DNA of 64,000 nucleotides from a virus. Taxonomy: Duplodnaviria; Caudoviricetes. The notes under the pieces were generated by a model. It was not told the origin of the DNA. It ran no database searches and was given only the letters and a program-made list of their open reading frames with translations. The stretch is taken from the IMG/VR virus record IMGVR_UViG_3300031951_000074, positions 1 through 64,000 of that record; one strand, given 5' to 3'. Made by a program: the position numbers and the translations under genes. Below are positions 1-35,894 of this stretch, in pieces. How positions within the stretch are numbered: position 1 is the stretch's first letter; every line of letters begins with the position of its first letter.

Positions 1-18
1 GTGTGATTTTTTGCTAGT

Positions 19-138
19 TTTTCCACTGGCGCAGGCGGCTTTTGGGGAATAAATTTTTCAAGGTTTTCCACTGGCGCAGGTGGCCAACAACTTCAAAAAT
101 TTCAAGGTTTTCCACTGGCGCAGGTGGGTCACCTGCGC
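19..138. repeat. Three direct repeats of TTTTCCACTGGCGCAGG (copies 2 and 3 extend to a 28-bp identity), ending in hairpin GCGCAGGTG-N3-CACCTGCGC
   Basis: Copies at 19-35, 56-83 and 100-127; inverted repeat at 118-138. Confidence 0.9.
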
Positions 139-151
139 TAATTAAGTGGTT

Positions 152-210
152 GCTTATATTCGTGAACGCTTATATAAGCCGACTCTTATATAAGCGGCGG
201 CTTATATACA
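152..210. repeat. Cluster of (G)CTTATAT(AAG) repeats including palindrome GCTTATATAAGC
   Basis: Four CTTATAT copies between about 152 and 210. Confidence 0.75.
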
Positions 211-297
211 CCCAAACCCTCCATTGTATCATGTGCCCGGGGGTGGGGTCAAGTGGTTTTTCTACCACACACGACTCGTGGGGTCTTTCGAAAAACC

Positions 298-410
298 TTG
301 ACAACCTCACCAAAATTATGATATAATTTTGGCGCCATAATACCCCTATAACCTGGTCAACAATAGGGGTATTAGGTCAAATAATAAGGGGCTATAAGCC
401 CCTTTTATTA
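298..410 (+). promoter_or_regulatory. Repeat element 1: sigma70-like promoter, GGCGCC, hairpins
   Basis: TTGACA 298-303, 18-nt spacer, TATAAT 322-327, GGCGCC 331-336, then two inverted repeats. Confidence 0.8.
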
Positions 411-572
411 TTCCCTGATATGTTCTAGTATATCCGTGGCCAATTCTTCCATTTCCTTTGTAATATCCACATCAGACATCGGCTGTAGAGCCAGTTTAAT
501 AATAAGTGCCAACCGTATCATTTCCTCATGACTGAGTACAATAATATATTCAGTTTTGGTTTCAATTTGCAT
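408..572 (-). CDS. Hypothetical protein, 54 aa (not in ORF track)
   Basis: MQIETKTEYII...HIRE*, AGGAG RBS; stop abuts the element-1 hairpin. Confidence 0.7.
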   Translation of the reverse strand: MQIETKTEYIIVLSHEEMIRLALIIKLALQPMSDVDITKEMEELATDILEHIRE

Positions 573-601
573 TTTTGATTCTCCTTTTGAAAATGCGGAT
601 T

Positions 602-988
602 TTAGTCCAGATCAGTAACTGGTGAATATAATTCTCCCGTACTGAATCCTAGATCATTTAGTATCTTTTCTAGGTGTGTTGCAATTAATTGGAATCGGTC
701 ATCGTGATGATAGTTTTCATTAAAGCTGTTATCCTCGATCATTTTGGCATGGATTAATTCGTGTGCAATTACCCCATACACATCAAAATTGGATTCCAAT
801 GTCTGGCCTAAATTAATGACAATTTTGTGTTTTTGGAGACGGTTATTGCGAAACACAGTATCGCACCAACCTGCCAAACCACGATGAGTCTTATTATAAA
901 CTCGGGTTTTCAATACTACGTCAACGGGTTTGTGTATTTCCAATACAGAAACCACGGCTTGAATCAACAACAATACATCAGGTTTCAT
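602..988 (-). CDS. SprT-like zinc metalloprotease-domain protein
   Basis: AHELIH (HExxH) followed by HHDDRF; AGWC motif upstream. Confidence 0.65.
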   Translation of the reverse strand: MKPDVLLLIQAVVSVLEIHKPVDVVLKTRVYNKTHRGLAGWCDTVFRNNRLQKHKIVINLGQTLESNFDVYGVIAHELIHAKMIEDNSFNENYHHDDRFQLIATHLEKILNDLGFSTGELYSPVTDLD

Positions 989-1025
989 GGTGTTTTATAT
1001 GGGGGTTATTAGCCCCCATATATAT

Positions 1026-1724
1026 TTACTTTGCGACGAAGTGTTCTTTTACTTGGTGTTTTTTCCAATCATATGGAATTACCTTTTCTCGCCAATCACG
1101 CTTTTTCAAGATATTGACCAGAACGGGAACTTCAAAATCCCGCGCATCTTCCAGTGCAGTATGTGGCTCAACCTTAAACTCGCCACACACAAAACCACAA
1201 ACTGCTTCCGCCGTGGTTTTGTAGGTCATGTTTTGGTTGACGGTAGGGGAATTGAATAGATGGTTATCGATGCAAAACTGCCGATAGCGCTTAGTATGGG
1301 TAATATTACCGATACTAGCTTGCCAAAGACAGAATTTGTCATTGAAGATATTCAAATCAATTCCGGTTTTGTCGCATTTGTCGCGATCAAAAGCCAGATT
1401 GTATGCGGTAAGGGTAGGGTTATACTTACCCACAGCCTGATTCAGCCATTTATTAATGGCAGCTGTCGAAGCCAGCATACGAACACCAGAATTCAGCATG
1501 GATACATATGCTGCTTTACGCTTTTCCAGTCCCTCATAACCCCAAATATCATTTGCACGTTTATCGTGGAACAATTCATATGTGCAGTAATGGTCTTTTA
1601 CCAATACTGCACATTGGTTGTAAATCTTGCCATCACGGTCAACAATAACCGCAGCAAAATCAGCTACAGTATCTTGCATTGTGGTTTCAGTATCGACCAC
1701 GCACCAGAATTGCTTTTTAGCCAT
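1026..1724 (-). CDS. DEDDh 3'-5' exonuclease
   Basis: ExoI VVDTETT, ExoII AYNLAFD, ExoIII HTALEDA; ATG at 1724 preferred. Confidence 0.8.
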   Translation of the reverse strand: MAKKQFWCVVDTETTMQDTVADFAAVIVDRDGKIYNQCAVLVKDHYCTYELFHDKRANDIWGYEGLEKRKAAYVSMLNSGVRMLASTAAINKWLNQAVGKYNPTLTAYNLAFDRDKCDKTGIDLNIFNDKFCLWQASIGNITHTKRYRQFCIDNHLFNSPTVNQNMTYKTTAEAVCGFVCGEFKVEPHTALEDARDFEVPVLVNILKKRDWREKVIPYDWKKHQVKEHFVAK

Positions 1725-1787
1725 ATTAACCTTCACACATGAAACCGGAAAGGGCCGGAGTCTCGCCCATGCCAACTGGCACCCGGC

Positions 1788-1817
1788 GAGTGTAACGCTT
1801 TTTGTGACTCACTGCAA
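1788..1817 (-). promoter_or_regulatory. Pre-early-type promoter
   Basis: TTGCAG-N18-TACACT on the minus strand upstream of the exonuclease. Confidence 0.55.
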
Positions 1818-1852
1818 GCCCCTACAGTGTGGTCAACTATTGACCAGGCGGC

Positions 1853-1914
1853 TTGACGGGGGCCAATTATATAATATATAATTGGCGCCAATATAAGGGT
1901 TTACCCTTATATTG
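1853..1914 (+). promoter_or_regulatory. Repeat element 2
   Basis: TTGACG-N18-TATAAT(1877-82), GGCGCC 1884-89, palindrome CAATATAAGGGT-TT-ACCCTTATATTG. Confidence 0.8.
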
Positions 1915-1916
1915 AT

Positions 1917-2165
1917 TTATTTCCTTTCCCAGATTTTATATCTTATCATTATGACGACGAAAAACAGATTTAGTATGTAGTTGAATAACAGTGGCATATC
2001 TCCTTTTGGAAATATATAAACAATGGTGAATAACTCCCCAAAGAACCAACAACCCAAGAAAAAGGGGTTTAATCCTCGGGCGTGGCCGTCTTTTGCACAT
2101 TGCAAAACCTGGGGAATTGCACATATTGCAAATAATATGCTACCAATCCAACCTATAGTTTCCAT
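1917..2165 (-). CDS. PQ-loop / SemiSWEET-like 3-TM membrane protein
   Basis: IGWIGSILFAICAIPQV (PQ motif), three hydrophobic segments, 82 aa. Confidence 0.75.
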   Translation of the reverse strand: METIGWIGSILFAICAIPQVLQCAKDGHARGLNPFFLGCWFFGELFTIVYIFPKGDMPLLFNYILNLFFVVIMIRYKIWERK

Positions 2166-2166
2166 T

Positions 2167-2631
2167 TTAGTGACCCTGAACCGAGGGAATATAAACACCG
2201 CGGATATTGAAATGGTCGCAAACTGCTTTTAGGTAACTCACATTGTCTTCGTAAAATACACAGTCCGCAGTCTTGAATTGCTTCAAATTGAAAAACTTTT
2301 GCAAACCCTTGATTTTAAGAGTTTTGCCAGACTGGTTATCACCGTCACGACGCGAGATAAGGTAATCGGGGCTGCCGAGAATCTCACGGATAAACACATT
2401 ATCCAATTCGCGCACAATACGCGCAGTGGCGATAATTACATAAGTATTTGGATCTTGCAAGTCATTGCGATATTGAGACACAAGAGGAAGCAAACCATCT
2501 TGCATACACCGATTTTCATTATCGCGCCAGTATTGCAAATCGATTTTGACAATACCATTTTCTGTTATTGTGCGGTAACGGTGACTGCTATCAACGATCG
2601 TGCCATCCATGTCATATATCGCAACCTTCAT
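2167..2631 (-). CDS. dmp: Deoxynucleoside-5'-monophosphatase (T5 Dmp-like, HAD family)
   Basis: DMDGTIVDSSHR, MQDGLLPLV, IIATAR and EDN motifs resemble T5 Dmp. Confidence 0.8.
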   Translation of the reverse strand: MKVAIYDMDGTIVDSSHRYRTITENGIVKIDLQYWRDNENRCMQDGLLPLVSQYRNDLQDPNTYVIIATARIVRELDNVFIREILGSPDYLISRRDGDNQSGKTLKIKGLQKFFNLKQFKTADCVFYEDNVSYLKAVCDHFNIRGVYIPSVQGH

Positions 2632-2658
2632 TTTGAACCCCTTGTTTTGTAGAGCCCG

Positions 2659-2687
2659 AGTGTAGCACGTTCGGCCAGGCGACACAA
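2659..2687 (-). promoter_or_regulatory. Pre-early-type promoter
   Basis: TTGTGT-N17-TACACT with extended -10 TG. Confidence 0.6.
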
Positions 2688-2734
2688 GCCCCCAACAATG
2701 ACCCTACGTCGTGGTCAACCATTGACCAGGCCGC

Positions 2735-2832
2735 TTGACACGGTTGCCAATATTATGTTATAATATTGGCGCCCCTATTAGGGTTAACCCTAATAGGGGC
2801 TTTTAAATAATAAGGGGTATAACCCCTTATTA
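2735..2832 (+). promoter_or_regulatory. Repeat element 3
   Basis: TTGACA-N18-TATAAT(2759-64), GGCGCC 2768-73, 30-bp perfect palindrome 2771-2800 plus a second hairpin. Confidence 0.85.
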
Positions 2833-2834
2833 TG

Positions 2835-3167
2835 TCACGCAATGGCTTTTGCAATATCTCGAGCCTTTGCACCCAGTCGGTTAATAATGGTTTCTGACCA
2901 GTGGCCGCCAATATTGCACGGCAATACTTGCATACTCGCCCAACGGTCCAACACAAGATACTCGGCAACATCGTAGCGATACAGGGATTCTTCTACGCTG
3001 GCAAGACTCACAGCAAATTTGCCAGTATCGATGCCGGTTTGCTTGATACCAACACAAACCCCCAGCAAGGGAAAATGAAAGATAACCACGTCGGGATAAT
3101 CCGCCCGCATATCTTGCAGAATATCCAATTCCGTATCGTTCAAGACGGTCTGGTTCACGTTACGCAT
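2835..3167 (-). CDS. Hypothetical protein
   Basis: 110-aa ORF with AAAGG RBS; stop abuts element 3. Confidence 0.7.
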   Translation of the reverse strand: MRNVNQTVLNDTELDILQDMRADYPDVVIFHFPLLGVCVGIKQTGIDTGKFAVSLASVEESLYRYDVAEYLVLDRWASMQVLPCNIGGHWSETIINRLGAKARDIAKAIA

Positions 3168-3255
3168 GATAAGCCCTTTCTATGGCTTGGTTGGGAAAAT
3201 GGTTTGCTTAGGGCATATTATACCCTAAGCAAACCCCTTTCGGGGTTTGCTTCAA

Positions 3256-3588
3256 TCATTCGATTGGACGGGAATTGGCCAGTGCATCAAAGATCGCCTT
3301 CAATGCACGTTTGTTAGCCTTGGTGAGGCTATCAACGTCAGGCTCAGACAGCATAAGGATCTTGCCGATAGCCTCGGCGTGTGCATCCTTCTTCACGGGA
3401 GACTCACCAGTCTTGGTAACATAGGTCTTCTTCTGGTAAACACCCTCACGACTCAGTTTCGCAACAATCGAGCGAACCGATTTACCGAGACTCTCGGCAA
3501 GGGCTTCGACCGTAGTGCCGGCCTTGTACGCTTCGACCAGAGCAGCAGTCTGCTCAGGAGTATAATTCACAACCTTTTCAGTGGCCAT
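3256..3588 (-). CDS. A2: T5 A2-like DNA-binding pre-early protein (copy 1)
   Basis: N-terminal HTH-like segment (YTPEQ...LAESLGKSVRSIVAKLSREGVYQK) resembling T5 A2 SVRSKL...YQK. Confidence 0.7.
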   Translation of the reverse strand: MATEKVVNYTPEQTAALVEAYKAGTTVEALAESLGKSVRSIVAKLSREGVYQKKTYVTKTGESPVKKDAHAEAIGKILMLSEPDVDSLTKANKRALKAIFDALANSRPIE

Positions 3589-3661
3589 TTTCAGTTTCTC
3601 CGAGTTAACACGCATGGGGAAATTTTGGCAATGCCGGGCAATCCCCTCAACCTATGCTGAT

Positions 3662-3763
3662 ATTATACAGGGTCAACATTCCCCCGTCAAGTATTGTGTT
3701 TTCTTTCCTTTCTGTTCGTCGTCGTCAGGGACACAGTATAACGGTTTTTCAGCCTGGACACAA
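3662..3763 (-). promoter_or_regulatory. Tandem promoters upstream of A2 copy 1
   Basis: TTGACG-N17-TATAAT (3690-3662) and TTGTGT-N17-TATACT (3763-3735). Confidence 0.7.
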
Positions 3764-3791
3764 TACCCTAGTGCATCGTGGGGTCTTTGCG

Positions 3792-3840
3792 CCAGGCGGT
3801 GATCGGCGGTTAACCAGGCGGTGATCGGCAGTTAACCAGG
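3792..3840. repeat. Tandem 22-bp repeat CCAGGCGGTGATCGGCRGTTAA (2 copies plus CCAGG)
   Basis: Seen directly. Confidence 0.85.
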
Positions 3841-3852
3841 GGTAAGTCCCTA

Positions 3853-3986
3853 TTGACAGGTGTATTAGAACATGATATAATTTTGGCGCACCCCATAGGT
3901 AACACCTATGGGGTGCGGCGGCTCAATAGGTAACACCTATTGAGCCACAAACAAAAAAGCCGACAAAAACAGTCGGCTTTTTTGTG
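3853..3986 (+). promoter_or_regulatory. Repeat element 4 followed by three hairpins and no ORF
   Basis: TTGACA-N17-TATAAT(3876-81), GGCGCA; two hairpins share the core ATAGGTAACACCTAT. Confidence 0.8.
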
Positions 3987-3992
3987 TGGCCC

Positions 3993-4059
3993 TTGACAGG
4001 GCCCAAAATTATATGTTATAATTTTGGCGCAAATTAGCCGCCTGGCCAGGCGGCTAATT
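3993..4059 (+). promoter_or_regulatory. Repeat element 5
   Basis: TTGACA-N18-TATAAT(4017-22), GGCGCA, perfect palindrome AATTAGCCGCCTGGCCAGGCGGCTAATT. Confidence 0.85.
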
Positions 4060-4068
4060 ATACTGCGA

Positions 4069-4233
4069 TTATTCGTCGGTGTTGACGACGATGGTGGAAA
4101 CGTGGGGGTCAGAAGCGGGAACAGCTTCCTCCAGCATCTTGACCCTATACGACACCCAGTTGATGCTGGTGTAGTATTCCTGATGATGCTTGAAGTGCTC
4201 TTGGTCCCACCATTCGATCATGTAAACCTTCAT
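4069..4233 (-). CDS. Hypothetical protein, 54 aa (not in ORF track)
   Basis: MKVYMIEWWDQEHF...NTDE*, AAGGAA RBS, TATACT -10 at 4263-68. Confidence 0.75.
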   Translation of the reverse strand: MKVYMIEWWDQEHFKHHQEYYTSINWVSYRVKMLEEAVPASDPHVSTIVVNTDE

Positions 4234-4328
4234 TTGGGTTCCTTTCCTGTTGCAGAGAACACAGTATAACGCTTTTTAAGCCACACAGCACATACCCGAG
4301 CGCATCGTGGGGTCTTTTAGCCAGGCCC

Positions 4329-4399
4329 TTGACAGGGCCCAAAATTATATGTTATAATTTTGGCGCCATAATAACCCTATATATTATAGGGTTATTATG
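4329..4399 (+). promoter_or_regulatory. Repeat element 6
   Basis: TTGACA-N18-TATAAT(4353-58), GGCGCC 4362-67, hairpin 4367-4399; promoter identical to element 5. Confidence 0.85.
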
Positions 4400-4405
4400 T
4401 GGTCG

Positions 4406-4567
4406 TTAGAAAAACCCCATGTTGATGATTTTGTAGTCCAGTTTGGGGCACTTTTTGCCTAAATTCTTTTTCAATTCTACACAATCCCTTTCTAAATCCG
4501 ACAGGTTTTGATAGTGACACACCAAAACATTATCGAAAAACAAACCCCAGACTTTTACAACACCCAT
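4406..4567 (-). CDS. Hypothetical protein, 53 aa (not in ORF track)
   Basis: MGVVKVWGLFF...MGFF*; overlaps the end of the upstream ORF; stop lies next to element 6. Confidence 0.55.
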   Translation of the reverse strand: MGVVKVWGLFFDNVLVCHYQNLSDLERDCVELKKNLGKKCPKLDYKIINMGFF

Positions 4568-4767
4568 TTTGAAATCCCCACCAGGTTAGCGCACAAGAAA
4601 AACCCATTCAATACACTGAGGGATTTATCCCTTTTCGTGATCCCGATATATAGCCACGATATCGAACCAATAATAAACAAACTGTATCCCAAAATATATA
4701 TCTGAAACGCAACCAGAAAACTGCCGATAACCGAGCTTATAGTGCCTAGCCACGATATATACCCCAT
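4555..4767 (-). CDS. Small 3-TM membrane protein
   Basis: 70 aa, mostly hydrophobic. Confidence 0.7.
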   Translation of the reverse strand: MGYISWLGTISSVIGSFLVAFQIYILGYSLFIIGSISWLYIGITKRDKSLSVLNGFFLCANLVGISKWVL

Positions 4768-4768
4768 T

Positions 4769-5134
4769 TTAGACCCGTTTGTAGTTTACCATGTTATGGC
4801 ATCGTTCTGGAGGCAGACCTAATTCTTTCATAATCTTTTTCCAGCTTTTGCCATGCCCAAAATCATTATACACCAGAAAAGCCACACAGTGTGCCAATTC
4901 ATGGGGAATAATAACCCTACAAAATTCGTCGGGATATTGTTCGAACAATTCAACCGACAAATCTATACACTGCGGATTGCGCTCAATAAAAGCACGTCCT
5001 GCGGTAGTTTTCAGCCGTTTATTCAAAACTACCGCAGGAGCAGTTTTGGTTAAGCTGGGGTACAGAAAGCACAGTATATCCCAAGTGTCTTGGGCACTGC
5101 GGTCTGCCATTTCTTGCATTGTGGGGGCTTTCAT
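4769..5134 (-). CDS. SprT-like metalloprotease-domain protein
   Basis: NKRLKTTAGRA, IIPHELAH and GHGKSWK are SprT hallmarks. Confidence 0.85.
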   Translation of the reverse strand: MKAPTMQEMADRSAQDTWDILCFLYPSLTKTAPAVVLNKRLKTTAGRAFIERNPQCIDLSVELFEQYPDEFCRVIIPHELAHCVAFLVYNDFGHGKSWKKIMKELGLPPERCHNMVNYKRV

Positions 5135-5141
5135 GGGCTGG

Positions 5142-5170
5142 ATTCTACTACAAAAATTTGGCTATCACAA
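5142..5170 (-). promoter_or_regulatory. Pre-early-type promoter
   Basis: TTGTGA-N17-TAGAAT. Confidence 0.55.
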
Positions 5171-5205
5171 GACCCCTCGACCAGGTCAACTATTCCACAT
5201 GGGGC

Positions 5206-5271
5206 TTGACACGGTTGCCAATATTATATTATAATATTGGCGCCAGTATTAGGGTTTACCCTAATACTGGC
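5206..5271 (+). promoter_or_regulatory. Repeat element 7
   Basis: TTGACA-N18-TATAAT(5230-35), GGCGCC 5239-44, palindrome GCCAGTATTAGGGT-TT-ACCCTAATACTGGC. Confidence 0.85.
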
Positions 5272-5275
5272 CTTA

Positions 5276-5467
5276 TTAAATAGGTACGACTTTGTAGACA
5301 GTATGTTGGACGACCCTTACAGGAATACCGTCGAATACTTGAAGATGTTCCATATTCAGGGGTTTGTCGCCAGACAACAATTCCAATTCTTCCACAAATT
5401 CTTCCACCGTTGAACCTGCGCCAATATACTCGGCCCTATCGCTGGCAATATAGATTCCAAACAGCAT
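5276..5467 (-). CDS. Hypothetical protein
   Basis: MLFGIYIAS..., AAAGGAA RBS. Confidence 0.7.
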   Translation of the reverse strand: MLFGIYIASDRAEYIGAGSTVEEFVEELELLSGDKPLNMEHLQVFDGIPVRVVQHTVYKVVPI

Positions 5468-5510
5468 GATGTTTCCTTTCTTGAAAAAGGGGGATATTAT
5501 CCCCCGGATA

Positions 5511-5831
5511 TCACACGATGAGCGAGAGCTTTTGCAGTACCTTTTGCAATGCGGTTTTGTTCGCCTTGGTGAGACTGCTAATCTCGGGTTCACTCAATTC
5601 ACAAAGAGCCCCGATTTTGTCTGCAAGCTCTTCTTTCGAAACAACTGTTTCACCAGTTTTGGTGACATACTCCTTTTTCCTGTAAACACCTTCCCGGCTG
5701 AGTTTAGCTACCACGCTGCGGACACTCTTGCCCAGCGTGGCCGCAATACTTTCTACGGGAACACCCTTGCTATACCCGTCCAGCATTTGTTGGACCTGCT
5801 CGGGAGTATAGTTTGCGGTTTTCTCAGTCAT
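5511..5831 (-). CDS. A2: T5 A2-like DNA-binding pre-early protein (copy 2)
   Basis: Clear paralogue of 3256-3588 (LGKSVRSVVAKLSREGVY, YVTKTGE, SLTKANK). Confidence 0.7.
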   Translation of the reverse strand: MTEKTANYTPEQVQQMLDGYSKGVPVESIAATLGKSVRSVVAKLSREGVYRKKEYVTKTGETVVSKEELADKIGALCELSEPEISSLTKANKTALQKVLQKLSLIV

Positions 5832-5943
5832 CTTCTTTCCTTTCAATCAAAGACCATCGCCGACAACAATAGCAATTCCCATTGCAAGAATCGCCACCCA
5901 GAATGGGCTAGTAGCCCAGATAATCAGAAAAAGATCAGACATT

Positions 5944-6144
5944 TTAACCCCTCTTTGAATAAACAATCAGACCCGTGAGATACTCGCGCTTACCCGCCAT
6001 GTAGCTGCGACGCACCACATAGGACTTCAAGCCCTTACTGTTGGCGGCTTCGATAGCCCCCGTCAGCAAGCTGTGCGACTCCAGCACAGCGGGCTTGTGA
6101 GCGACTTCACTAACATACACAGTGTAAACAGGCTCGTAACCCAT
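5944..6144 (-). CDS. Hypothetical protein
   Basis: MGYEPVY..., GGAG RBS; promoter TTGTGT-N17-TATACT at 6210-6182. Confidence 0.7.
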   Translation of the reverse strand: MGYEPVYTVYVSEVAHKPAVLESHSLLTGAIEAANSKGLKSYVVRRSYMAGKREYLTGLIVYSKRG

Positions 6145-6261
6145 CGAAGGTCTCCGGTTGTTCGTCGTTTCCATGGGACACAGTATAACGCTTTTTCGGC
6201 CTGGACACAATACCCTAGTGTGTTGTGGGGTCTTTGAGCCAGGCCTAGGGGTAAGTCCCTA

Positions 6262-6409
6262 TTGACAGCAAGAATTTGGTGTGGTATAATTTTGGCGCCA
6301 CAAAAACCCTACAGATTGTAGGGTTTTTGTGGCCAGGCCGTTGACACGGCCCAAAATTATGTGCTATAATTTTGGCGCCCCAAAGCCCCTGCACATTGCA
6401 GGGGCTTTG
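6262..6409 (+). promoter_or_regulatory. Repeat elements 8 and 9 in tandem
   Basis: TTGACA 6262/TATAAT 6285/GGCGCC 6294/hairpin 6297-6333; TTGACA 6341/TATAAT 6365/GGCGCC 6374/hairpin 6381-6409. Confidence 0.85.
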
Positions 6410-6411
6410 TG

Positions 6412-6579
6412 TTACTTTGACCGGCTGGCCCGAGCCGCCTTGACCTGGCGGTTACGCTCCGCCTTTTCGCGACGGTTACGCTCCAGCCGAGCCTTGCGCT
6501 CTCGTTCATCGGCACGCTTGTGAGCAACAGGAGCCAGACCCAGACCAGCACGCAGTTCGTTGATTTGATTCAGGTTCAT
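6412..6579 (-). CDS. Small Arg-rich basic protein
   Basis: MNLNQINELRAGLGLAP..., AGGAG RBS. Confidence 0.7.
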   Translation of the reverse strand: MNLNQINELRAGLGLAPVAHKRADERERKARLERNRREKAERNRQVKAARASRSK

Positions 6580-6616
6580 TTCAGTCACTCCTAGAAAAGC
6601 CCTTTCGGGCAGGTAA

Positions 6617-6817
6617 TCACTTGATCCTGGCCACAGCCATTTCAGTGTGGCCGACCACGGCATCGACGACCTTTTCGGAATCGTCCATAGCATCCGCCAG
6701 CATTCCGGACAGGTATCCGACAATAAAGGTTTCGGTAGCATCGCCAGACCAACCCTCAGAAGTCTTAGCATCACGAAGGGCTTGAATCAGGGCACGGGCT
6801 TTGTCGATGTTGGTCAT
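6617..6817 (-). CDS. Hypothetical protein (paralogue of 7003-7194)
   Basis: ETFIVGYLSGMLA...VGHT; GAGGA RBS. Confidence 0.75.
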   Translation of the reverse strand: MTNIDKARALIQALRDAKTSEGWSGDATETFIVGYLSGMLADAMDDSEKVVDAVVGHTEMAVARIK

Positions 6818-6921
6818 TTCGGGTTCCTCTTGTGTTGCAGTAGACACAGTATAGCACAACACCAAGCCCGTGCAACACCTAAATTTTAGCCCTTTGACCA
6901 GGTCAACCATTGTGGAAGCGC

Positions 6922-6989
6922 TTGACCCGGCCCAAAATTATGTGCTATAATTTTGGCGCCATAAAGCCCCCACAATCTGTGGGGGCTTT
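6922..6989 (+). promoter_or_regulatory. Repeat element 10
   Basis: TTGACC-N18-TATAAT(6946-51), GGCGCC 6955-60, hairpin 6963-6989. Confidence 0.85.
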
Positions 6990-7002
6990 GATTGATTGGT
7001 GA

Positions 7003-7194
7003 TTACTTTGACTTCAAGTCATTCGTGTGCCATTCCACGCTACGCGCCACGTCCTCGTTTTCGCGCACAGCACTGGCCAGCATACCCGTCAGGTAACCGA
7101 CAACAAAGGACTCGGAATAGCCCTTCTTGGCAGCGTGCTCGCGGGCGGCCTGGAGCAGGGCCTGGACTTGGTTGTAGGCTTCGGTAGCAGTCAT
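7003..7194 (-). CDS. Hypothetical protein (paralogue of 6617-6817)
   Basis: ESFVVGYLTGMLA...EWHT; AAGGAA RBS. Confidence 0.75.
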   Translation of the reverse strand: MTATEAYNQVQALLQAAREHAAKKGYSESFVVGYLTGMLASAVRENEDVARSVEWHTNDLKSK

Positions 7195-7299
7195 CTCGTG
7201 TTCCTTTCCTGTTGCAGTGAACGCAGTATAGCACAACACCATGCTCATGCAACATCTAAAATTTAACCCCTCAGTGTGGTCAACTATCCAGGCACCCGC

Positions 7300-7360
7300 T
7301 TGACAGGACCCAATTATATAATATATAATTGGCGCCCGAATAGGGGTTTACCCCTATTCG
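7300..7360 (+). promoter_or_regulatory. Repeat element 11
   Basis: TTGACA-N18-TATAAT(7324-29), GGCGCC 7331-36, palindrome CGAATAGGGGT-TT-ACCCCTATTCG. Confidence 0.85.
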
Positions 7361-7492
7361 TTATTCTTCATATACTATGAAGTATGGAGTTTCCCCATAA
7401 TCTCCAGAGTATTCAATGGGATGGTCTGGATTGAACAGAGTCATATCAATACCAGTATCCCAGAAAACATCAAAAACCCAGTCTTGATACAT
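7361..7492 (-). CDS. Small acidic hypothetical protein
   Basis: MYQDWVFDV..., AAGGAA RBS. Confidence 0.6.
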   Translation of the reverse strand: MYQDWVFDVFWDTGIDMTLFNPDHPIEYSGDYGETPYFIVYEE

Positions 7493-7502
7493 ATACTTCC
7501 TT

Positions 7503-7727
7503 TCAATAGTCCAACCAATCGCCCATACTCTCGATTTTGGCGGCTGCTTCTTCCACACTAATAACGTGTGGAATGTGCGATACCCAAGTCGGGCTATCGG
7601 GGCCAATATACATAACACAGCACCAGCGGCCCGTAGCACCACGGGCCAGACAATGGATGCCCTGTATGGGCCGGGGATACTTCGTACCCGTGATATCACA
7701 CTCGGTGATAGTGCCAAAAACCATCAT
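7503..7727 (-). CDS. Hypothetical protein
   Basis: 74 aa, AGGAG RBS. Confidence 0.65.
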   Translation of the reverse strand: MMVFGTITECDITGTKYPRPIQGIHCLARGATGRWCCVMYIGPDSPTWVSHIPHVISVEEAAAKIESMGDWLDY

Positions 7728-7747
7728 GGTATATACTCCTGATTTGA

Positions 7748-7942
7748 TTACGCCATTACCCGAGCGATATACGCCTGGGCCTGTTCCACAGTCTTAAAAG
7801 ACTTGACCTGCTTGGTGACCCAGTAGGCATCCTGCCGGATGGTGTCAAACTTGAACACCTGCACTTGGACAGTGCGAGTAGCCCACGGTACAACAAACGC
7901 CCTGACAGTGCCAAGGGCCGGGGGAGTGTAGGTGTTGGTCAT
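7748..7942 (-). CDS. Hypothetical protein
   Basis: MTNTYTPP..., GAGGA RBS, TATACT -10 at 7973-78. Confidence 0.7.
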   Translation of the reverse strand: MTNTYTPPALGTVRAFVVPWATRTVQVQVFKFDTIRQDAYWVTKQVKSFKTVEQAQAYIARVMA

Positions 7943-8046
7943 CTCGTGTTCCTCTTGTCTTGCTGTGAACACAGTATAGCACAACACCACACCAGCACAA
8001 CATCAAAATTTTAACCCCTCGACCAGGTCAACTATTGTGCGGGGGC

Positions 8047-8109
8047 TTGACCGGGCCACCAAAATTATGATATAATTTTGGCGCCACAATAGGGGTAAAC
8101 CCCTATTGT
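8047..8109 (+). promoter_or_regulatory. Repeat element 12
   Basis: TTGACC-N18-TATAAT(8071-76), GGCGCC 8080-85, palindrome ACAATAGGGGT-AA-ACCCCTATTGT. Confidence 0.85.
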
Positions 8110-8244
8110 TTATTCTGTTAGTTCTCTGTATACCTGATCATAACTAACACAGTATTCCCAGGCTGCATTTCTGCAAGCATCAAAGAAACTCATGTGATAT
8201 ACAGACATCAATTGCTTTGCGTAACACACGGCAGCTTCAAGCAT
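8110..8244 (-). CDS. Small hypothetical protein
   Basis: MLEAAVCYAK..., AAGGAA RBS. Confidence 0.6.
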   Translation of the reverse strand: MLEAAVCYAKQLMSVYHMSFFDACRNAAWEYCVSYDQVYRELTE

Positions 8245-8254
8245 TTTGTTCCTT

Positions 8255-8458
8255 TCAAACCCGAAACGTGGGGTTGACACCCACCTTGTCAGCCACCATC
8301 CACACGTACTCCACGTACACTTCTTCTTCGCGGGCAGCCTGGGCCGCCACGTCCAGCTCCCAGTTGGCTTGGTCGTATTCTTCACGAATGGTCATCTCAG
8401 CCATGTCCAGCTCAAAGGACTCAATGTCTTCACGGGTCATGTCGGTGGGGTAGTACAT
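8255..8458 (-). CDS. Small, very acidic protein (possible DNA mimic)
   Basis: 67 aa rich in D/E; AGGAG RBS; promoter TTGACA-N18-TATACT at 8520-8491. Confidence 0.7.
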   Translation of the reverse strand: MYYPTDMTREDIESFELDMAEMTIREEYDQANWELDVAAQAAREEEVYVEYVWMVADKVGVNPTFRV

Positions 8459-8554
8459 CTTGGGGGCTCCTTGTCTGTGTCAGTAGAGTTAGTATAACGC
8501 AAAACAGCGTGTTGTGTCAAACCCGATCTTTGTGTGGGGTCTTTGACCAGGCCC

Positions 8555-8623
8555 TTGACCGGGCCACCAAAATTATGATATAATTCTGGCGCCACAAAGC
8601 CCCTACAGATTGTAGGGGCTTTG
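8555..8623 (+). promoter_or_regulatory. Repeat element 13
   Basis: TTGACC-N18-TATAAT(8579-84), GGCGCC 8588-93, hairpin 8595-8623. Confidence 0.85.
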
Positions 8624-8628
8624 GTCAA

Positions 8629-8871
8629 TCACACCAAGGTGTACCGACCCGCATCGTACTCACGAAGCACAGCACGACCGATGTTGGCGTTAGTATCCAT
8701 ATCGAGCCCCCACAACACAACCACGCCGGAAATGTGGCGTGAGGCATCGTGAAAGAAAACCTCTACATCGTCCAGGTTCAGCTCTACCCCATCCTGTTCC
8801 TCGAACACAATGTCCAAGAATTGTTGATTGTTGTAGACCCGGCCGGTGTTGTAAACAATGTGCTTCTTCAT
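8629..8871 (-). CDS. Hypothetical protein
   Basis: MKKHIVYNTGRVY..., AGGAG RBS. Confidence 0.7.
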   Translation of the reverse strand: MKKHIVYNTGRVYNNQQFLDIVFEEQDGVELNLDDVEVFFHDASRHISGVVVLWGLDMDTNANIGRAVLREYDAGRYTLV

Positions 8872-8882
8872 CTTTGTTCTCC

Positions 8883-8969
8883 TTACATGAAGCGCTGAAC
8901 AAACCAAACCTTCAGCCAGAAAACTATCACAATCGTTTCGACGGCTGCAATGATTTCTGCTGTGGTCAT
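8883..8969 (-). CDS. 28-aa single-TM peptide (not in ORF track)
   Basis: MTTAEIIAAVETIVIVFWLKVWFVQRFM*, GAGGA RBS, promoter TTGACT-N18-TATACT at 9030-9001. Confidence 0.6.
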   Translation of the reverse strand: MTTAEIIAAVETIVIVFWLKVWFVQRFM

Positions 8970-9237
8970 CTTGGTGTTCCTCTCGTGTTGCAGTGATGAC
9001 AGTATAGCGCAAAACACCACAGTCAGTCAAACCCGAGTTTTATGTGGGGTTTTTGAGTGGCCCCTTGACGTGGCCCAGGAACACGTGGTACAATAGGGGC
9101 GGTTAACAGACTAGTTACTTTACTGAGTGTGCTGCGCCCTCCAACACGGCCTCTTTTAAAAAAATATCACACAACACTTTCGGTGCCAAAACCCAGCAAA
9201 TCCTTTTTAAAAATAATACCCAAGTCAAAAATAGTGG

Positions 9238-9266
9238 TTGAATTTTTTTAACACATGTTTTATAAT
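9238..9266 (+). promoter_or_regulatory. Promoter for terminase genes
   Basis: TTGAAT-N17-TATAAT. Confidence 0.7.
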
Positions 9267-9295
9267 TCAGTTTTACACTACCCACAACACCAACC

Positions 9296-9781
9296 ATGAA
9301 CACACTGCCCGTTCCACACTCACCTGCAGAGGTAGTGCAGCTCACCCCAGAAGACGTGTTAATCTGCAATACGTACTTGACAACAGGAAGCATTGAAGTC
9401 ACGAGCTCTCAACTAGACATTAGTCAAGAACTGGTGGTCAAAACTCTGGAGTCGCCACTGTCCAAAAGTTATGTAGACCGTGTGTTTTTAGACTGGGGAT
9501 TTAACAATCGCTTCAAAATCCGCAAAGCAATGGATTTGGTGTTGGAAAAGAAATTTCAGGAGTTGGACGAGTCGGGGACGGGGTCTTCAAAAGATATCGC
9601 AGAATTGTTGGAATTGTCACACAAAATGACAATGAATGAATTGGACCGCCAGATTGCATTAGAAAAGATACGCTCCCGTCACACACCCACCATCAAAAAA
9701 CAAACAAACATTCAAGTAAACGACAACTCTGTCACATCCAACTACCACAACCTATTAAGTACACTATTAAAAAATGCTTGA
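9296..9781 (+). CDS. terS: Terminase small subunit (T5-like)
   Basis: Position before TerL; LTPED, YVDRVFLDWGF and SKDIAELL resemble T5 TerS. Confidence 0.8.
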   Translation: MNTLPVPHSPAEVVQLTPEDVLICNTYLTTGSIEVTSSQLDISQELVVKTLESPLSKSYVDRVFLDWGFNNRFKIRKAMDLVLEKKFQELDESGTGSSKDIAELLELSHKMTMNELDRQIALEKIRSRHTPTIKKQTNIQVNDNSVTSNYHNLLSTLLKNA

Positions 9782-11054
9782 AATCTCACGAGGCGATATC
9801 GTCTCCAGTCACATTCAAACTTGGAATACTCCCACTATTCAACTTCCAATCGAACCGTATTTAAAGCTGTTACCGGTGGGTACTACAACAGCCTACGACG
9901 GTTTAAACCGACCCCAAATTGCATTAATCAACGCAGTTAACTCACCTCACTACCGCTTTATTACTTGTGCGTACAGCCGTCGTCTGGGCAAGACGTTTAT
10001 TTCAAATGTGTTAGGACAGTTAATCTTTTTGATTCCAAACAAACACGTTTTAATCATGAGTCCTAACTATAGCTTGTCCAACATCAGCTTTGACTTACAA
10101 CGCAGTTTTATAAAGAACTTTGATTTAGAGGTGACTCGAGACAACACAAAAGACAGAATTATTGAATTAAGTAACAATAGTACGATCCGAATGGGATCGG
10201 TCTCAACGGTAGACTCCAGCGTAGGACGCAGTTACGACTTAATTATTTTTGATGAGGCTGCACTGCATGTGGACGGAGAAGACGCTTTTAACATTGCACT
10301 TCGCCCTACCTTAGACAAACCTACTTCAAAAGCAATCTTTATCTCAACCCCTCGTGGTAAGTCAAACTGGTTCTCTTCCTTCTACAACCGTGGGTTTGAT
10401 GACAGCTACCCGTACTGGTGTTCATTACGAGCAACCTACGACGAAAATCCTCGCATGAGTGAAACCGACGTTTTAGAGGCCAAGAACAGCATGAGTGTTG
10501 CCCAGTTCGAACAAGAGTATTTAGCGTCTTTTAATAGTTACGAGGGTCAGATTTACAAGTTTAGTGAACACAATGTAATAGACGAAACACATGTGGGCGA
10601 GTGTTTTAGTGGATTGGATCCGGGCTATCGAGACGAAACTGCATATGTAGTGGTTCAGTATTGTTATGAGTCAGATTGGTTCTATGTGTTAGACGAGTAT
10701 GTTGAAAAGAACCTTCCCACGTCCATCCATGCAGAGCGTATTAACAACCTCAATAATACGTATGGTGTAGAAACGGTGTTTATCGATTCAGCCGCAGCAC
10801 AAATGAGTGCGGACCTGGCCTACAACTACAACATCAGTTGTACAAAATCAAAAAAGGACGTTTTAGCAGGCATTAGCTTTGTGCAAAACTTGGTAGAAAC
10901 CAATCGTTTAAAAGTGCATCCTCGTTGTAAAGAAGTGTTAAAGATGTTAGACCAATATCGCTGGGATAGTTCCACGTCCGGAAAACCAGTTCATGACCGT
11001 TACTCACACATGGCAGATGCTCTTCGTTATGCACTATACAGTTTTGTTACCTAA
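9774..11054 (+). CDS. terL: Terminase large subunit
   Basis: SRRLGKT Walker A, IIFDEAA Walker B, ISTPRG, GLDPGYRD, SHMADALRY. Confidence 0.95.
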   Translation: MLEISRGDIVSSHIQTWNTPTIQLPIEPYLKLLPVGTTTAYDGLNRPQIALINAVNSPHYRFITCAYSRRLGKTFISNVLGQLIFLIPNKHVLIMSPNYSLSNISFDLQRSFIKNFDLEVTRDNTKDRIIELSNNSTIRMGSVSTVDSSVGRSYDLIIFDEAALHVDGEDAFNIALRPTLDKPTSKAIFISTPRGKSNWFSSFYNRGFDDSYPYWCSLRATYDENPRMSETDVLEAKNSMSVAQFEQEYLASFNSYEGQIYKFSEHNVIDETHVGECFSGLDPGYRDETAYVVVQYCYESDWFYVLDEYVEKNLPTSIHAERINNLNNTYGVETVFIDSAAAQMSADLAYNYNISCTKSKKDVLAGISFVQNLVETNRLKVHPRCKEVLKMLDQYRWDSSTSGKPVHDRYSHMADALRYALYSFVT

Positions 11055-11066
11055 CAAAAAATTTGC

Positions 11067-11095
11067 TTGAGAAATTTTTGCCTTTAGTATATAAT
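11067..11095 (+). promoter_or_regulatory. Late-region promoter
   Basis: TTGAGA-N17-TATAAT. Confidence 0.65.
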
Positions 11096-11105
11096 AAGGA
11101 CTGCT

Positions 11106-11600
11106 ATGGGAACAAACACAAACAAGCGAATTCCTGTAAAATGGATTCGTGACAAAGCAAAAAGTGCATACCAAAAACAAGACCATTGTTTTGTGTGTGG
11201 TGTGGAGTTGGACTTAGAACTACACCACTTAGGGTCAGTTACCCTATTATTGGAGCGCTGGTGCAAGGGTAGGGGGTTAGTCTTAAAAACGGATGACGAC
11301 GTTTTAAACATTCGTGATGAGTTTATTGAAAATCACCAAACAGAATTGTACAAAGACGTTTATACTCTTTGTAATCATCACCATGTTTTATTACACTCCG
11401 TTTTTGGAAAAGCGCCACCTCTGTCAAGCGTAGCCAAACAGCGTAACTGGATTGAGATTCAAAAGAACAAAAAAACCGATAAGATTGTTTTAAACAGTAA
11501 CATTCTTACTTTTAGCAGTTTTTACGGAAATTTTGAGTCCTTTAAACCATTGTACGAGAAAACAAATGAAAATAAGCACCGTATTCAAGAACTGGATTGA
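11106..11600 (+). CDS. T5-type site-specific nicking HNH endonuclease
   Basis: KWIRD..KSAY, CxxC, LELHH, TLCNHHH..LH; syntenic between terL and portal as in T5. Confidence 0.85.
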   Translation: MGTNTNKRIPVKWIRDKAKSAYQKQDHCFVCGVELDLELHHLGSVTLLLERWCKGRGLVLKTDDDVLNIRDEFIENHQTELYKDVYTLCNHHHVLLHSVFGKAPPLSSVAKQRNWIEIQKNKKTDKIVLNSNILTFSSFYGNFESFKPLYEKTNENKHRIQELD

Positions 11601-19463: not shown

Positions 19464-19522
19464 AGGGCTTTTTTATGCTTAAAATTTATAGGTTTGACAC
19501 TTTTTAGCCTCTATGATATAAT
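19446..19522 (+). promoter_or_regulatory. Terminator followed by a consensus promoter for the TMP gene
   Basis: AGCCCTCTA-AA-TAGAGGGCT-TTTTT; TTGACA(19494)-N17-TATAAT(19517). Confidence 0.8.
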
Positions 19523-35829: not shown

Positions 35830-35894
35830 TAAAATACACCCACTAACCCTGGGTGTATTTTTTACTTGACAATTTTTACCCTGTATAGTATAAT
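35830..35894 (+). promoter_or_regulatory. Terminator followed by a consensus promoter
   Basis: AAAATACACCCA...TGGGTGTATTTT; TTGACA(35866)-N17-TATAAT(35889). Confidence 0.8.

Follow-up and report, generated by a model that had tools for sequence, protein, structure and literature searches.

Known promoter-hairpin arrangements in phages

The promoter-early stem-loops (PeSLs) of T4-like phages are composite promoter-terminator motifs lying between small early genes, and are associated with genome plasticity, that is, the gain, loss and swapping of genes (PMC4122927, PMC2839356). The promoters of PeSLs are co-oriented with the flanking genes. The words 'antisense', 'orientation', 'opposite' and 'bidirectional' each occur 0 times in the main text of PMC4122927. 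In phage lambda, constitutive sigma70 promoters produce short, hairpin-terminated RNAs from Po (oop RNA), which is convergent with an early gene, and from PR' (6S RNA), where the site of the antitermination regulator Q lies between the -35 and the -10. In phage T5, the injection-stop/nick region combines palindromes with an R^GCGC core in the first-entering block, on the same strand as the terminase gene (AY543070; bioRxiv 10.1101/866236, section 15; PMC3517423). In addition, E. coli RNA polymerase can stay on DNA after hairpin termination and reinitiate at the nearest promoter in either orientation (PMC11347151).

Here, we analyze an uncultured freshwater relative of T5 (Duplodnaviria; Caudoviricetes; IMG/VR record IMGVR_UViG_3300031951_000074, 91,614 bases), of which positions 1 to 64,000 constitute the window referred to below. 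A first-pass annotation of the window, made from sequence alone, had reported thirteen near-consensus promoters that point against the first-expressed genes and lead directly into palindromes. Our analysis confirms this observation. Literature searches found no description of the arrangement, and the annotation likewise knew of none.

Anatomy of the thirteen elements

All 13 sites match TTGACN-N16-19-TATAAT-N1-3-GGCGC on the + strand, with -35 hexamers at 298, 1853, 2735, 3853, 3993, 4329, 5206, 6262, 6341, 6922, 7300, 8047 and 8555, whereas no match was found in 100 dinucleotide shuffles. The whole record has 13 forward and 0 reverse matches, and thus none outside this region. The spacer is 18 nt in 11 of 13 sites and 17 nt in two (3853 and 6262). 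Nine sites score 12/12 and four score 11/12 against TTGACA/TATAAT, and ten of 13 have TG before the -10. Hairpins of 10-17 bp start 0-7 nt from the first G of GGCGC, and a GGGT(TT/TA/AA)ACCC core is present in 5 of 13 (1853, 2735, 5206, 7300 and 8047).

The genes of this region lie on the - strand. Pfam searches identified SprT-like domains twice and a PQ-loop, along with weak, sub-cut-off HAD and GcrA-like matches. A codon log-odds model scores the Pfam-supported - strand ORFs positive and the + strand shadow ORFs negative, though several small - strand ORF coordinates at 6400-8400 also scored negative. No + strand ORF of 35 aa or more with both an RBS-like motif and a positive coding score exists in positions 1-9400. 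In 11 of 13 elements the hairpin, or the second hairpin at 298 and 2735, ends 0-12 nt from the stop codon of a - strand gene, while sites 3853 and 6262 are 'empty'.

The first element (298-411) has its -10 at 322-327, GGCGCC at 331 and a hairpin at 336-376, followed by a second, bidirectional terminator-like hairpin at 386-404 that overlaps the stop of gene 408-572(-). In the second (1853-1916), GGCGCC at 1884 is followed by a hairpin at 1887-1916 that abuts the stop of gene 1917-2198(-), and in the third (2735-2831), GGCGCC at 2768 is followed by a hairpin at 2771-2800, a second hairpin at about 2803-2831 and the stop of gene 2835-3167(-). The fourth (3853-3985), the first of the empty sites, has no spacer palindrome and is followed by three hairpins ending in a canonical A6/T6 terminator, forming a unit of about 100 nt with no convergent gene. 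The fifth (3993-4059) has GGCGCA at 4026 and a hairpin at 4032-4059, 9 nt before the stop of gene 4069-4233(-), and the sixth (4329-4399) has GGCGCC at 4362 and a hairpin at 4367-4399, 6 nt before the stop at 4406. In the seventh (5206-5274), with GGCGCC at 5239, the hairpin extends to 5274, 1 nt before the stop of gene 5276-5467(-). The eighth (6262-6333), the other empty site, also lacks a spacer palindrome and has a hairpin at 6297-6333 with A5/T5 flanks, followed directly by the ninth (6341-6411), in which GGCGCC at 6374 precedes a hairpin at 6379-6411 that abuts the stop of gene 6412-6579(-). The tenth (6922-6990) has GGCGCC at 6955 and a hairpin at 6962-6990, 12 nt before the stop of gene 7003-7194(-). 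The hairpins of the eleventh (7300-7360; GGCGCC at 7331, hairpin 7337-7360) and twelfth (8047-8109; GGCGCC at 8080, hairpin 8086-8109) abut the stops of genes 7361-7492(-) and 8110-8244(-), respectively. The thirteenth (8555-8623) has GGCGCC at 8588 and a hairpin at 8595-8623, 5 nt before the stop of gene 8629-8871(-).

Eleven of the 13 elements sit back-to-back with a weaker sense promoter located upstream, 34-46 nt away or more with inserts; the exceptions are 3993 and 6341. For example, the sense promoter at 8491-8520(-), TTGACA-N18-TATACT, is separated by 34 nt between the two -35 hexamers. Those sense promoters listed in a scan for promoter-like sites score 10-11/12, and the other partners, read directly from the sequence, are not among its 35 sites (threshold 9/12). 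Terminator-like hairpins at 996-1022 and 5489-5505 have no such promoter, which suggests coupling of the elements to sense promoters rather than to terminators. A variant at 9065-9094 (TTGACG-N18-TACAAT, 10/12) has the same class I linker and sense partner (9030-9001) but no GGCGC and no hairpin, and it faces the + strand terminase block.

Conservation and orientation in related phages

The design is retained in many related phage contigs. In 116 IMG/VR stretches we found 309 unique elements. Of 325 unique TATAAT-GGCGC sites in these stretches, 256 have a perfect TTGACA, mostly at 18 nt, and 53 more match at 5/6, and in 85 of 94 multi-element loci all elements lie on one strand. Of 304 elements scored with a looser pattern, the downstream coding strand is opposite for 256, the same for 11 and unclear for 34, with 3 having too little flank; upstream, the corresponding numbers are 247, 11 and 16. 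GGCGC marks this antisense class, as consensus promoters followed by GGCGC face opposite coding in 247 cases, the same in 12 and unclear in 34, whereas those without GGCGC face the same in 94, opposite in 14 and unclear in 10. A divergent promoter site scoring 9/12 or better accompanies 162 of 309 elements, against 37 of 309 shuffled. The elements occur 4-13 times per genome. T5 itself, which has no TTGAC-N-TATAAT-GGCGC site, and a Vibrio relative lack the array.

A locus of a relative, L009, is collinear with the window except for gene-plus-cassette indels bounded by cassettes, and contigs of other samples join cassette to cassette, though these joints may include assembly chimeras. In marking the boundaries of gene insertion and deletion between close relatives, and in having a hairpin followed by a sense promoter in gene orientation, the elements resemble PeSLs. 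However, in this T5-like siphovirus, as opposed to the T4-like myoviruses, the best-conserved promoter points against the genes and into the hairpin, and carries a spacer/-10 palindrome and GGCGC. It is possible, though unlikely, that the backward promoters are mere passengers, copied from one natural divergent promoter region at the pre-early/terminase boundary, spread with gene cassettes by recombination and then neutralized by hairpins. The 9065 variant, which shares the linker and sense partner but drives + strand genes, and the cassette-bounded indels would fit this view. Nevertheless, the backward promoter is better conserved than the sense promoters and linkers, the linkers differ between subclades while the 38-nt core persists, most sites keep a perfect -35, and compensatory changes keep the palindrome.

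Palindromes, GGCGC and a possible DNA-structure signal

GGCGC reads as the shared G:C clamp, GGC|GCC, of two adjacent palindromes, of which one is built from the promoter spacer plus the -10, with arms that covary, and the other is the downstream hairpin. The first-pass annotation had offered a stringent-response-type discriminator as one candidate role. This is weakened by our analysis, as one to three T/A-rich bases (1-4 nt in relatives) intervene between the -10 and GGCGC and the distance varies with the palindrome class, unlike the G+C-rich block placed directly after the -10 at a fixed distance in rrnB P1-type promoters.

Alternatively, the conserved part could be a DNA-structure signal rather than a transcription unit, such as a T5-type nick site (R^GCGC), scattered copies of the injection-stop region, or a palindrome that extrudes as a cruciform and switches the promoter with supercoiling. 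The T5 nick consensus is R/GCGCRGG (PMC3517423), and it falls on the T5 minus strand at 8.0, 18.3, 32.6, 64.5 and 99.6 % of the genome, close to the positions of the major nicks (7.9, 18.5, 32.6, 64.8 and 99.6 %). One of these sites, 9748/9749, is annotated as a major single-chain interruption (AY543070). The window has three exact copies on the + strand at 28, 73 and 117, each after a DnaA-box-like TTTTCCACT (compare bioRxiv 10.1101/866236, section 15), and these lie on the same strand as the elements and the terminase gene, as in T5. The elements share with the T5 injection-stop/nick region the R^GCGC core, palindromes, a location in the first-entering block and the strand of the terminase gene, and the GGCGCC junction and covarying promoter palindrome also favor this reading. 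The elements themselves do not match the consensus, since RGG follows GCGC in 0 of 13. Further, the five T5 contexts share an upstream GTAAT/C-like motif and only 1 of the 5 has a palindrome after the nick, and a perfect -35 and -10 at fixed spacing is not needed for a nick site. We consider this reading doubtful.

Hairpins and the putative transcripts

The downstream hairpin is 10 bp or longer in 232 of 309 elements, against 24 of 309 shuffled. By a simple but strict criterion (a G+C-containing stem followed by a T-rich tract), it is terminator-like on the element strand in 8 of 13 elements here and on the gene strand in 4 of 13, and in relatives in 104 and 69 of 309, respectively. A separate terminator scan lists six of these hairpins on the + strand and two second hairpins on the - strand. 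Given that only 104 of 309 satisfy the criterion on the element strand, many units may read through. The first-pass annotation had also proposed antisense shut-off of the pre-early genes. This is weakened because the promoter is predicted to fire straight into a hairpin that ends before the stop codon and is more often terminator-like on the element strand than on the gene strand, such that long antisense RNA would need regulated read-through.

Such a switch is conceivable but doubtful. In this view, transcripts would initially stop at the hairpin, and later a phage factor reading the conserved spacer or start region would let polymerase run on, in the manner of lambda PR'/Q, silencing the pre-early genes by convergent transcription and feeding the co-oriented terminase block. 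In its favor, the elements in the relatives' loci L009, L010, L014 and L015 lie on the terminase strand and point towards the terminase gene, sequence between and after the hexamers is conserved, and many hairpins lack a good T-tract. It is also stated that how T5 shuts off its pre-early genes and switches between classes is unknown, and a T5 RNAP-binding protein acts through the discriminator (PMC7472727). On the other hand, no antiterminator family, including any Q-like protein, was found among the 20 window proteins scanned with Pfam or PHROGs and 9 later proteins. The coexistence of several covarying arm variants in one genome fits base pairing better than one protein's operator, and the + strand block has its own promoters at 9065, 9238, 19494 and 35866. 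Unlike the lambda oop and 6S units, the units here are much shorter and would stop before the coding sequence.

Another possibility, equally doubtful, is that the units are genes for short 5'-triphosphate hairpin RNAs acting in trans, for example as decoys or sponges for a host RNA-binding protein, nuclease or defence sensor, made in bulk from the first DNA to enter. A strong promoter followed by a hairpin and T-rich tail is the layout of a small-RNA gene, and the predicted start lies 0-7 nt from the hairpin base, a placement linked to RNA stability. The three-hairpin unit at 3853-3985 gives a sub-threshold match to RNAI (Rfam RF00106; 31 bits against a gathering cut-off of 47, E 0.013, at 3880-3985), and nothing reaches an Rfam gathering score. 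However, hairpin sequences differ between elements and between relatives, and only the promoter part of 3840-4000 finds matches in 123 relatives' loci. The RNA body is thus not conserved, which argues for a role in cis.

A hypothesis for the role of the elements

The interpretation in the first-pass annotation is partly supported. Its view of the sites as a non-coding set of antisense promoters agrees with our finding of conserved, gene-less, antisense sigma70-type promoters, and the composite promoter-terminator nature of PeSLs is as described (PMC4122927), whereas its first and third candidate functions, antisense shut-off and a stringent-type discriminator, are weakened. With respect to its second candidate, an RNA polymerase trap or anchor linked to two-step DNA transfer, analogy with the T5 map suggests that the promoters probably point towards the entering free end, in which case they could not pull DNA in.

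We tentatively hypothesize that the elements are self-terminating mini-units that act in cis on host RNA polymerase traffic on the first-entering DNA, and that the RNA itself does not matter. The transcript would begin in or next to GGCGCC and run at once into the 10-17-bp hairpin, yielding only about 30-45 nt of RNA (about 100 nt at 3853) without entering the convergent gene. The unit would capture host polymerase from the cell, release the RNA at the hairpin while leaving polymerase on or near the DNA for the neighboring sense promoters, as in bacterial 'recycling termination', and close each one-gene cassette against antisense and read-through transcription. The conserved 38-nt core would also provide the homology at which cassettes are gained, lost and swapped. 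The sequence anatomy, its conservation and orientation, the pairing with sense promoters and the indel boundaries are established by our analysis, whereas polymerase binding, the start site, termination, the hand-off and any benefit to the phage are inferred from sequence alone. A hairpin terminator next to promoters in either orientation is the geometry in which polymerase hand-off was observed (PMC11347151), but that work used in vitro single-molecule assays on E. coli templates, nothing links it to phage cassettes, and the host here is unknown. The hypothesis does not explain why the spacer is palindromic with the -10 and discriminator and covaries, nor why GGCGC is kept; two of the 13 elements have no sense partner, and a phage could simply strengthen its sense promoters instead.

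A more speculative and unlikely reading, though not excluded, is that the elements are polymerase-operated devices of two-step DNA entry. Super-consensus promoters embedded in an A+T-rich palindrome would stay linear, and hence active, only on the relaxed, linear first-step DNA, where they would load and hold host RNA polymerase on each newly entered cassette, acting as a ratchet and a hand-off to the inward-running sense promoters. They would switch themselves off by cruciform extrusion once the genome is supercoiled or circular. This would be a non-coding system that uses the host polymerase as a structural DNA-binding protein.

Implications for T5-like phages

How T5-like phages control the few kilobases that enter first, and how they later silence them, is still open (PMC7472727; Davison preprint). 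This clade has evolved a compact, strongly conserved non-coding device in exactly that region, a consensus promoter that is predicted to fire into its own stop. The element is short and amenable to study with E. coli polymerase without culturing the host. If it manages polymerase capture, hand-off or insulation, it would be a natural example of the promoter-terminator logic that synthetic biologists build by hand, and a test bed for post-termination recycling of polymerase in vivo. If instead the GGCGC and palindrome part turns out to be a nick or supercoil signal, it would tie T5's unexplained nicks and injection stop to transcription.

Genomic context of the promoter-hairpin elements

The window is the start of a 91,614-base IMG/VR virus record that is classed as linear with a CheckV completeness of 87 %. 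A contig from another sample (run X4, record 1) continues 1,909 bases beyond the first base of the window, so the record is cut there and the block goes on. The phage is a siphovirus distantly related to T5, as its large terminase (9774-11054) is 46 % identical to that of T5 and 48 % identical to those of 112-114-kb Vibrio phages, the latter being the best isolate terminase match. PHROGs searches identified a major tail protein and a fused protease/major head protein in the + strand block that follows, and ribonucleotide reductase and an SbcC-like protein on the - strand further on. Candidate hosts are freshwater Proteobacteria, given the promoter type. Two consensus promoters in the structural block (19494-19522 and 35866-35894) share a different spacer (TTGACA-nTTTTTAnCC-T-TAT...TATAAT, 17 nt), lack GGCGC, and appear to be a second promoter class.

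Bases 400-9030 hold about 25 small genes, all on the - strand. Pfam searches identified two SprT-like metallopeptidase paralogs (602-988 and 4769-5134) and a PQ-loop membrane protein (1917-2198) in this pre-early block, along with weak, sub-cut-off matches to HAD hydrolase (172 aa; 2167-2685), placed where T5 has dmp, and to GcrA in two helix-turn-helix proteins. The latter two are paralogous proteins of 106-110 aa (3256-3588 and 5511-5831, - strand) that match the PHROG 'transcriptional regulator, D5-like' and a 129-position DNA-binding family, and one of them has a weak BLAST match to T5 A2 (E 0.035); they are candidates for binding the palindromes of the cassettes. A codon log-odds model trained on long ORFs scored the Pfam-supported - strand ORFs positive and the long + strand shadow ORFs negative, although several small - strand ORF coordinates at 6400-8400 also scored negative. 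No + strand ORF with an RBS-like motif and a positive score exists in 1-9400.

Architecture of the elements

The first-pass annotation had described 13 near-consensus promoters on the + strand of this region, and we find all 13 exactly where it had placed them, with no match in 100 shuffled sequences and none elsewhere in the record. Nine of these match TTGACA/TATAAT at 12/12 positions and four at 11/12, eleven have an 18-nt spacer and two have a 17-nt spacer, and ten have TG before the -10. Each site is followed by a hairpin of 10-17 bp that starts 0-7 nt from the first G of GGCGC, and in 11 of 13 this hairpin, or a second one, ends 0-12 nt from the stop codon of a convergent gene, whereas the units at 3853 and 6262 enclose only hairpins. 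The variant at 9065 is the same cassette without GGCGC or a hairpin and faces the terminase block. That the backward promoters are merely passenger copies of this boundary promoter is a reading that we consider improbable.

In 11 of 13 sites, the exceptions being 3853 and 6262, the spacer is an inverted repeat of the -10 plus discriminator plus GG, for example CCAAAATTAT-GAT-ATAATTTTGG. In relatives, the left arm covaries with the discriminator class, such that TTT pairs with AAA, ATT with AAT, TTC with GAA, and T with the shorter arm, and the mean contiguous arm is 7.8, 7.0, 8.1 and 4.4 on the diagonal, against 2-4 off it. Among the 112 elements with discriminators other than TTT, which could not have been selected by the search pattern, 37 have 8 or more contiguous complementary bases. 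Also, a variant seen in another sample (8570 A>G) restores the one mismatched pair of the element at 8555, and the same paired form is carried by L009, a relative's locus whose terminase is 94 % identical. Visual inspection for a second promoter on the gene strand inside the palindrome revealed a -10 but no -35. GGCGCC is the place where this promoter palindrome (GCC...GGC) abuts the downstream hairpin, which often also runs GCC...GGC, and its distance from the -10 therefore varies (1-3 nt here, 1-4 nt in relatives), while the -35/-10 spacing stays at 18.

Eleven of the 13 sites sit back-to-back with a weaker sense promoter (TTGACA, TTGTGT or TTGCAC, followed by 16-18 nt and TATACT). As read by eye, 34-36 nt separate the two -35 hexamers in one linker class (CAAAGACCCCAC) and about 46 nt in the other (TTGACCTGGTCAA). 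Sites 3993 and 6341, which follow the units enclosing only hairpins, have no such partner. Terminator-like hairpins without a backward promoter are also present, at 996-1022 and 5489-5505; the backward promoter therefore goes with sense promoters and not with terminators as such. A 22-bp tandem repeat, CCAGGCGGTGATCGGCAGTTAA (3792-3840; 2.2 copies, 96 % matches), is inserted in the linker upstream of the element at 3853.

The gene-less unit after the promoter at 3853 (3880-3985) would give an RNA of about 100 nt with three hairpins, two of which share ATAGGTAACACCTAT, and a canonical terminator. It gives a match to the Rfam RNAI family of 31 bits, below the cut-off of 47, and no sequence reached a gathering score in the Rfam search. 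However, only the promoter portion of 3840-4000 finds matches in relatives, and we reject a conserved small RNA at 3853 because its body is not found in them. A broader role of the units as sources of trans-acting hairpin RNAs is possible but, in our view, unlikely.

Conservation and mobility of the elements in relatives

A scan of IMG/VR for a 22-base core returned at least 116 stretches. In those stretches, 256 of 325 unique TATAAT-N1-4-GGCGC sites have a perfect TTGACA (242 at 18 nt) and 53 more match at 5/6, and in 85 of 94 multi-element loci all elements lie on one strand. Of 304 unique elements, the downstream coding strand is opposite in 256, the same in 11 and could not be called in 34, with 3 having too little flank, while the corresponding upstream counts are 247, 11 and 16. 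A hairpin of 10 bp or more follows in 232 of 309 elements, against 24 of 309 shuffled, and a divergent promoter-like site scoring 9/12 or better lies upstream in 162 of 309, against 37 of 309 shuffled. GGCGC is specific to the backward class: consensus promoters with GGCGC face opposite coding in 247 cases, the same in 12 and an uncalled strand in 34, whereas those without it face the same strand in 94, the opposite in 14 and an uncalled strand in 10. This control also shows that the strand assignment is not biased towards 'opposite'.

Five near-complete relatives (100-128 kb) each hold 4-9 elements in one 5-8-kb cluster on one strand, counted after setting aside three off-cluster or opposite-strand matches. 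Relatives whose terminase is only 62-67 % identical keep the core, while their linkers and hairpins differ. T5 and Vibrio phage D386 have 5 and 4 TTGAC-N-TATAAT sites, respectively, but none of these is in an array or followed by GGCGC. A megablast search of window 1-12000 against isolate phages gave no match, and a blastn search of one element (6335-6410) against the same collection hit only the hairpin part, in T4-like phages; thus, no cultured carrier was found in these searches. All runs matching this DNA are metagenomes, comprising 17 freshwater or lake-water runs and 3 labelled 'fungus metagenome' that may be the source of this DNA; none is an RNA dataset, and one run examined as raw DNA reads gave no coverage.

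L009 is collinear with window 6814-11200, except for inserted or replaced gene-plus-cassette modules whose edges lie at cassettes. Logan contigs from other samples show breaks and joints at the cassettes and join cassette to cassette, for example 2624>6341 and 8458>8985, though some of these joints may be assembly chimeras at repeats.

Relationship to the nick and injection-stop regions of T5

The T5 nick consensus R/GCGCRGG (PMC3517423) occurs on the T5 minus strand, which is also its terminase strand, at 9749, 22337, 39747, 78574 and 121280, plus 107524 (AY543070). The first five fall at 8.0, 18.3, 32.6, 64.5 and 99.6 % of the genome, close to the map positions of the major nicks, and of these 9748/9749 alone is confirmed by the record, which annotates it as a major single-chain interruption; 107524 is a further match that is not known as a major nick. 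The five minus-strand contexts that we inspected share a GTAAT/GTAAC-like motif about 30-37 nt upstream of the cut, weakest at 107524, but only 1 of the 5 has a palindrome, and hence a nick accompanied by a palindrome is rejected as a general T5 feature.

The window begins with three 44-45-nt repeats (20-140) on the + strand, its terminase strand, each carrying TTTTCCACT followed by GGCGCAGG. TTTTCCACT is one base off the DnaA-box consensus that Davison describes in the T5 injection-stop region (section 15 of bioRxiv 10.1101/866236), and GGCGCAGG is an exact match to the T5 nick consensus. The third copy runs into the palindrome GCGCAGGTG-ggt-CACCTGCGC, as the T5 nick at 9749 also runs into a palindrome. 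The motif TTCCACTGGCGCAG recurs in five relatives' contigs (seven loci, some overlapping), and where the element strand is shown (relatives' loci L010, L014, L021, L030, L071 and L074) it is the same strand. This looks like a T5-type injection-stop/nick region. A 16-nt tandem repeat (166-208; 2.7 copies) containing the palindrome GCTTATATAAGC lies between these stop-like repeats and the first element. The order of terminase, pre-early block and stop-like repeats equals that at the T5 right terminal repeat, and by analogy we infer that the entering end lies near window 9.1-9.3 kb, in which case the sense genes would run inward and the backward promoters would point to the free end. Transcription-driven pulling of DNA by the backward promoters, comparable to the transcription-driven entry of T7, is rejected on this inferred geometry, since the predicted transcripts are about 40 nt and would point to the free end.

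The 13 elements share only the R^GCGC core with the T5 nick consensus, and RGG follows in 0 of 13, while the T5 sites share the upstream GTAAT/C-like motif instead of a promoter. Therefore, on the evidence of sequence alone, we do not classify the elements as nick sites. Other forms of a DNA-structure signal, such as a copy of the stop region or a cruciform switch, are, like a nick, possible but doubtful alternatives.

A hypothesis for the function of the elements

The closest described counterpart is the PeSL of T4-like phages, a composite promoter-terminator cassette at shuffling boundaries (PMC4122927). PeSL promoters are co-oriented with the genes. In the elements described here, the dominant and best-conserved promoter is instead inverted, predicted to be self-terminating, and built into a palindrome. 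Full-text searches of the literature found no paper describing backward self-terminating promoters in phage early regions, although supplementary files, such as the repeat lists of the Davison preprint and the motif tables of the PeSL papers, which might bear on the comparison, were not covered. Other background points of comparison are lambda oop/PR'/Q, the cruciform promoter reported by Horwitz and Loeb, the rrnB P1 discriminator, RNA stabilization by 5'-hairpins and the M13 minus-strand origin. The present analysis adds the relation of GGCGC to orientation, the covariation of arm and discriminator, the reading of GGCGCC as a two-palindrome junction, the link of the backward promoter to sense promoters rather than to terminators, the comparison of strand and order with the T5 nicks, terminase and stop region, and a polymerase-recycling model.

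The view in the first-pass annotation that these sites form a dedicated non-coding system is partly supported. The invariant parts of the unit are a promoter of predicted maximal affinity and an immediate hairpin, the variable part is the RNA, and the unit is tied to a divergent sense promoter. The simplest reading that uses all of this is a cis-acting unit that manages host polymerase on the first DNA to enter, which we consider the most likely of the readings weighed but put forward only tentatively, since it rests on no expression data and leaves the palindrome covariation and the GGCGC clamp unexplained. The anatomy of the elements, their conservation and orientation, their pairing with sense promoters and the cassette-bounded indels are read directly from sequence, whereas polymerase binding, the start site, termination, hand-off and any benefit to the phage are inferred. 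Regulated read-through, which would shut off the pre-early genes and later feed the terminase block, is an unlikely but possible alternative. In the cis-acting view, the backward promoter would capture polymerase by out-competing the host's own promoters, and a throw-away RNA would be released after a few dozen bases, so that the convergent gene is not transcribed backwards. Polymerase would then be left close to, or sliding on, the DNA next to the weaker sense promoters, as E. coli polymerase has been seen to reinitiate at the nearest promoter in either orientation after hairpin termination (PMC11347151). The same unit would also bound each cassette and supply the homology for shuffling, as PeSLs do in T4-like phages (PMC4122927).
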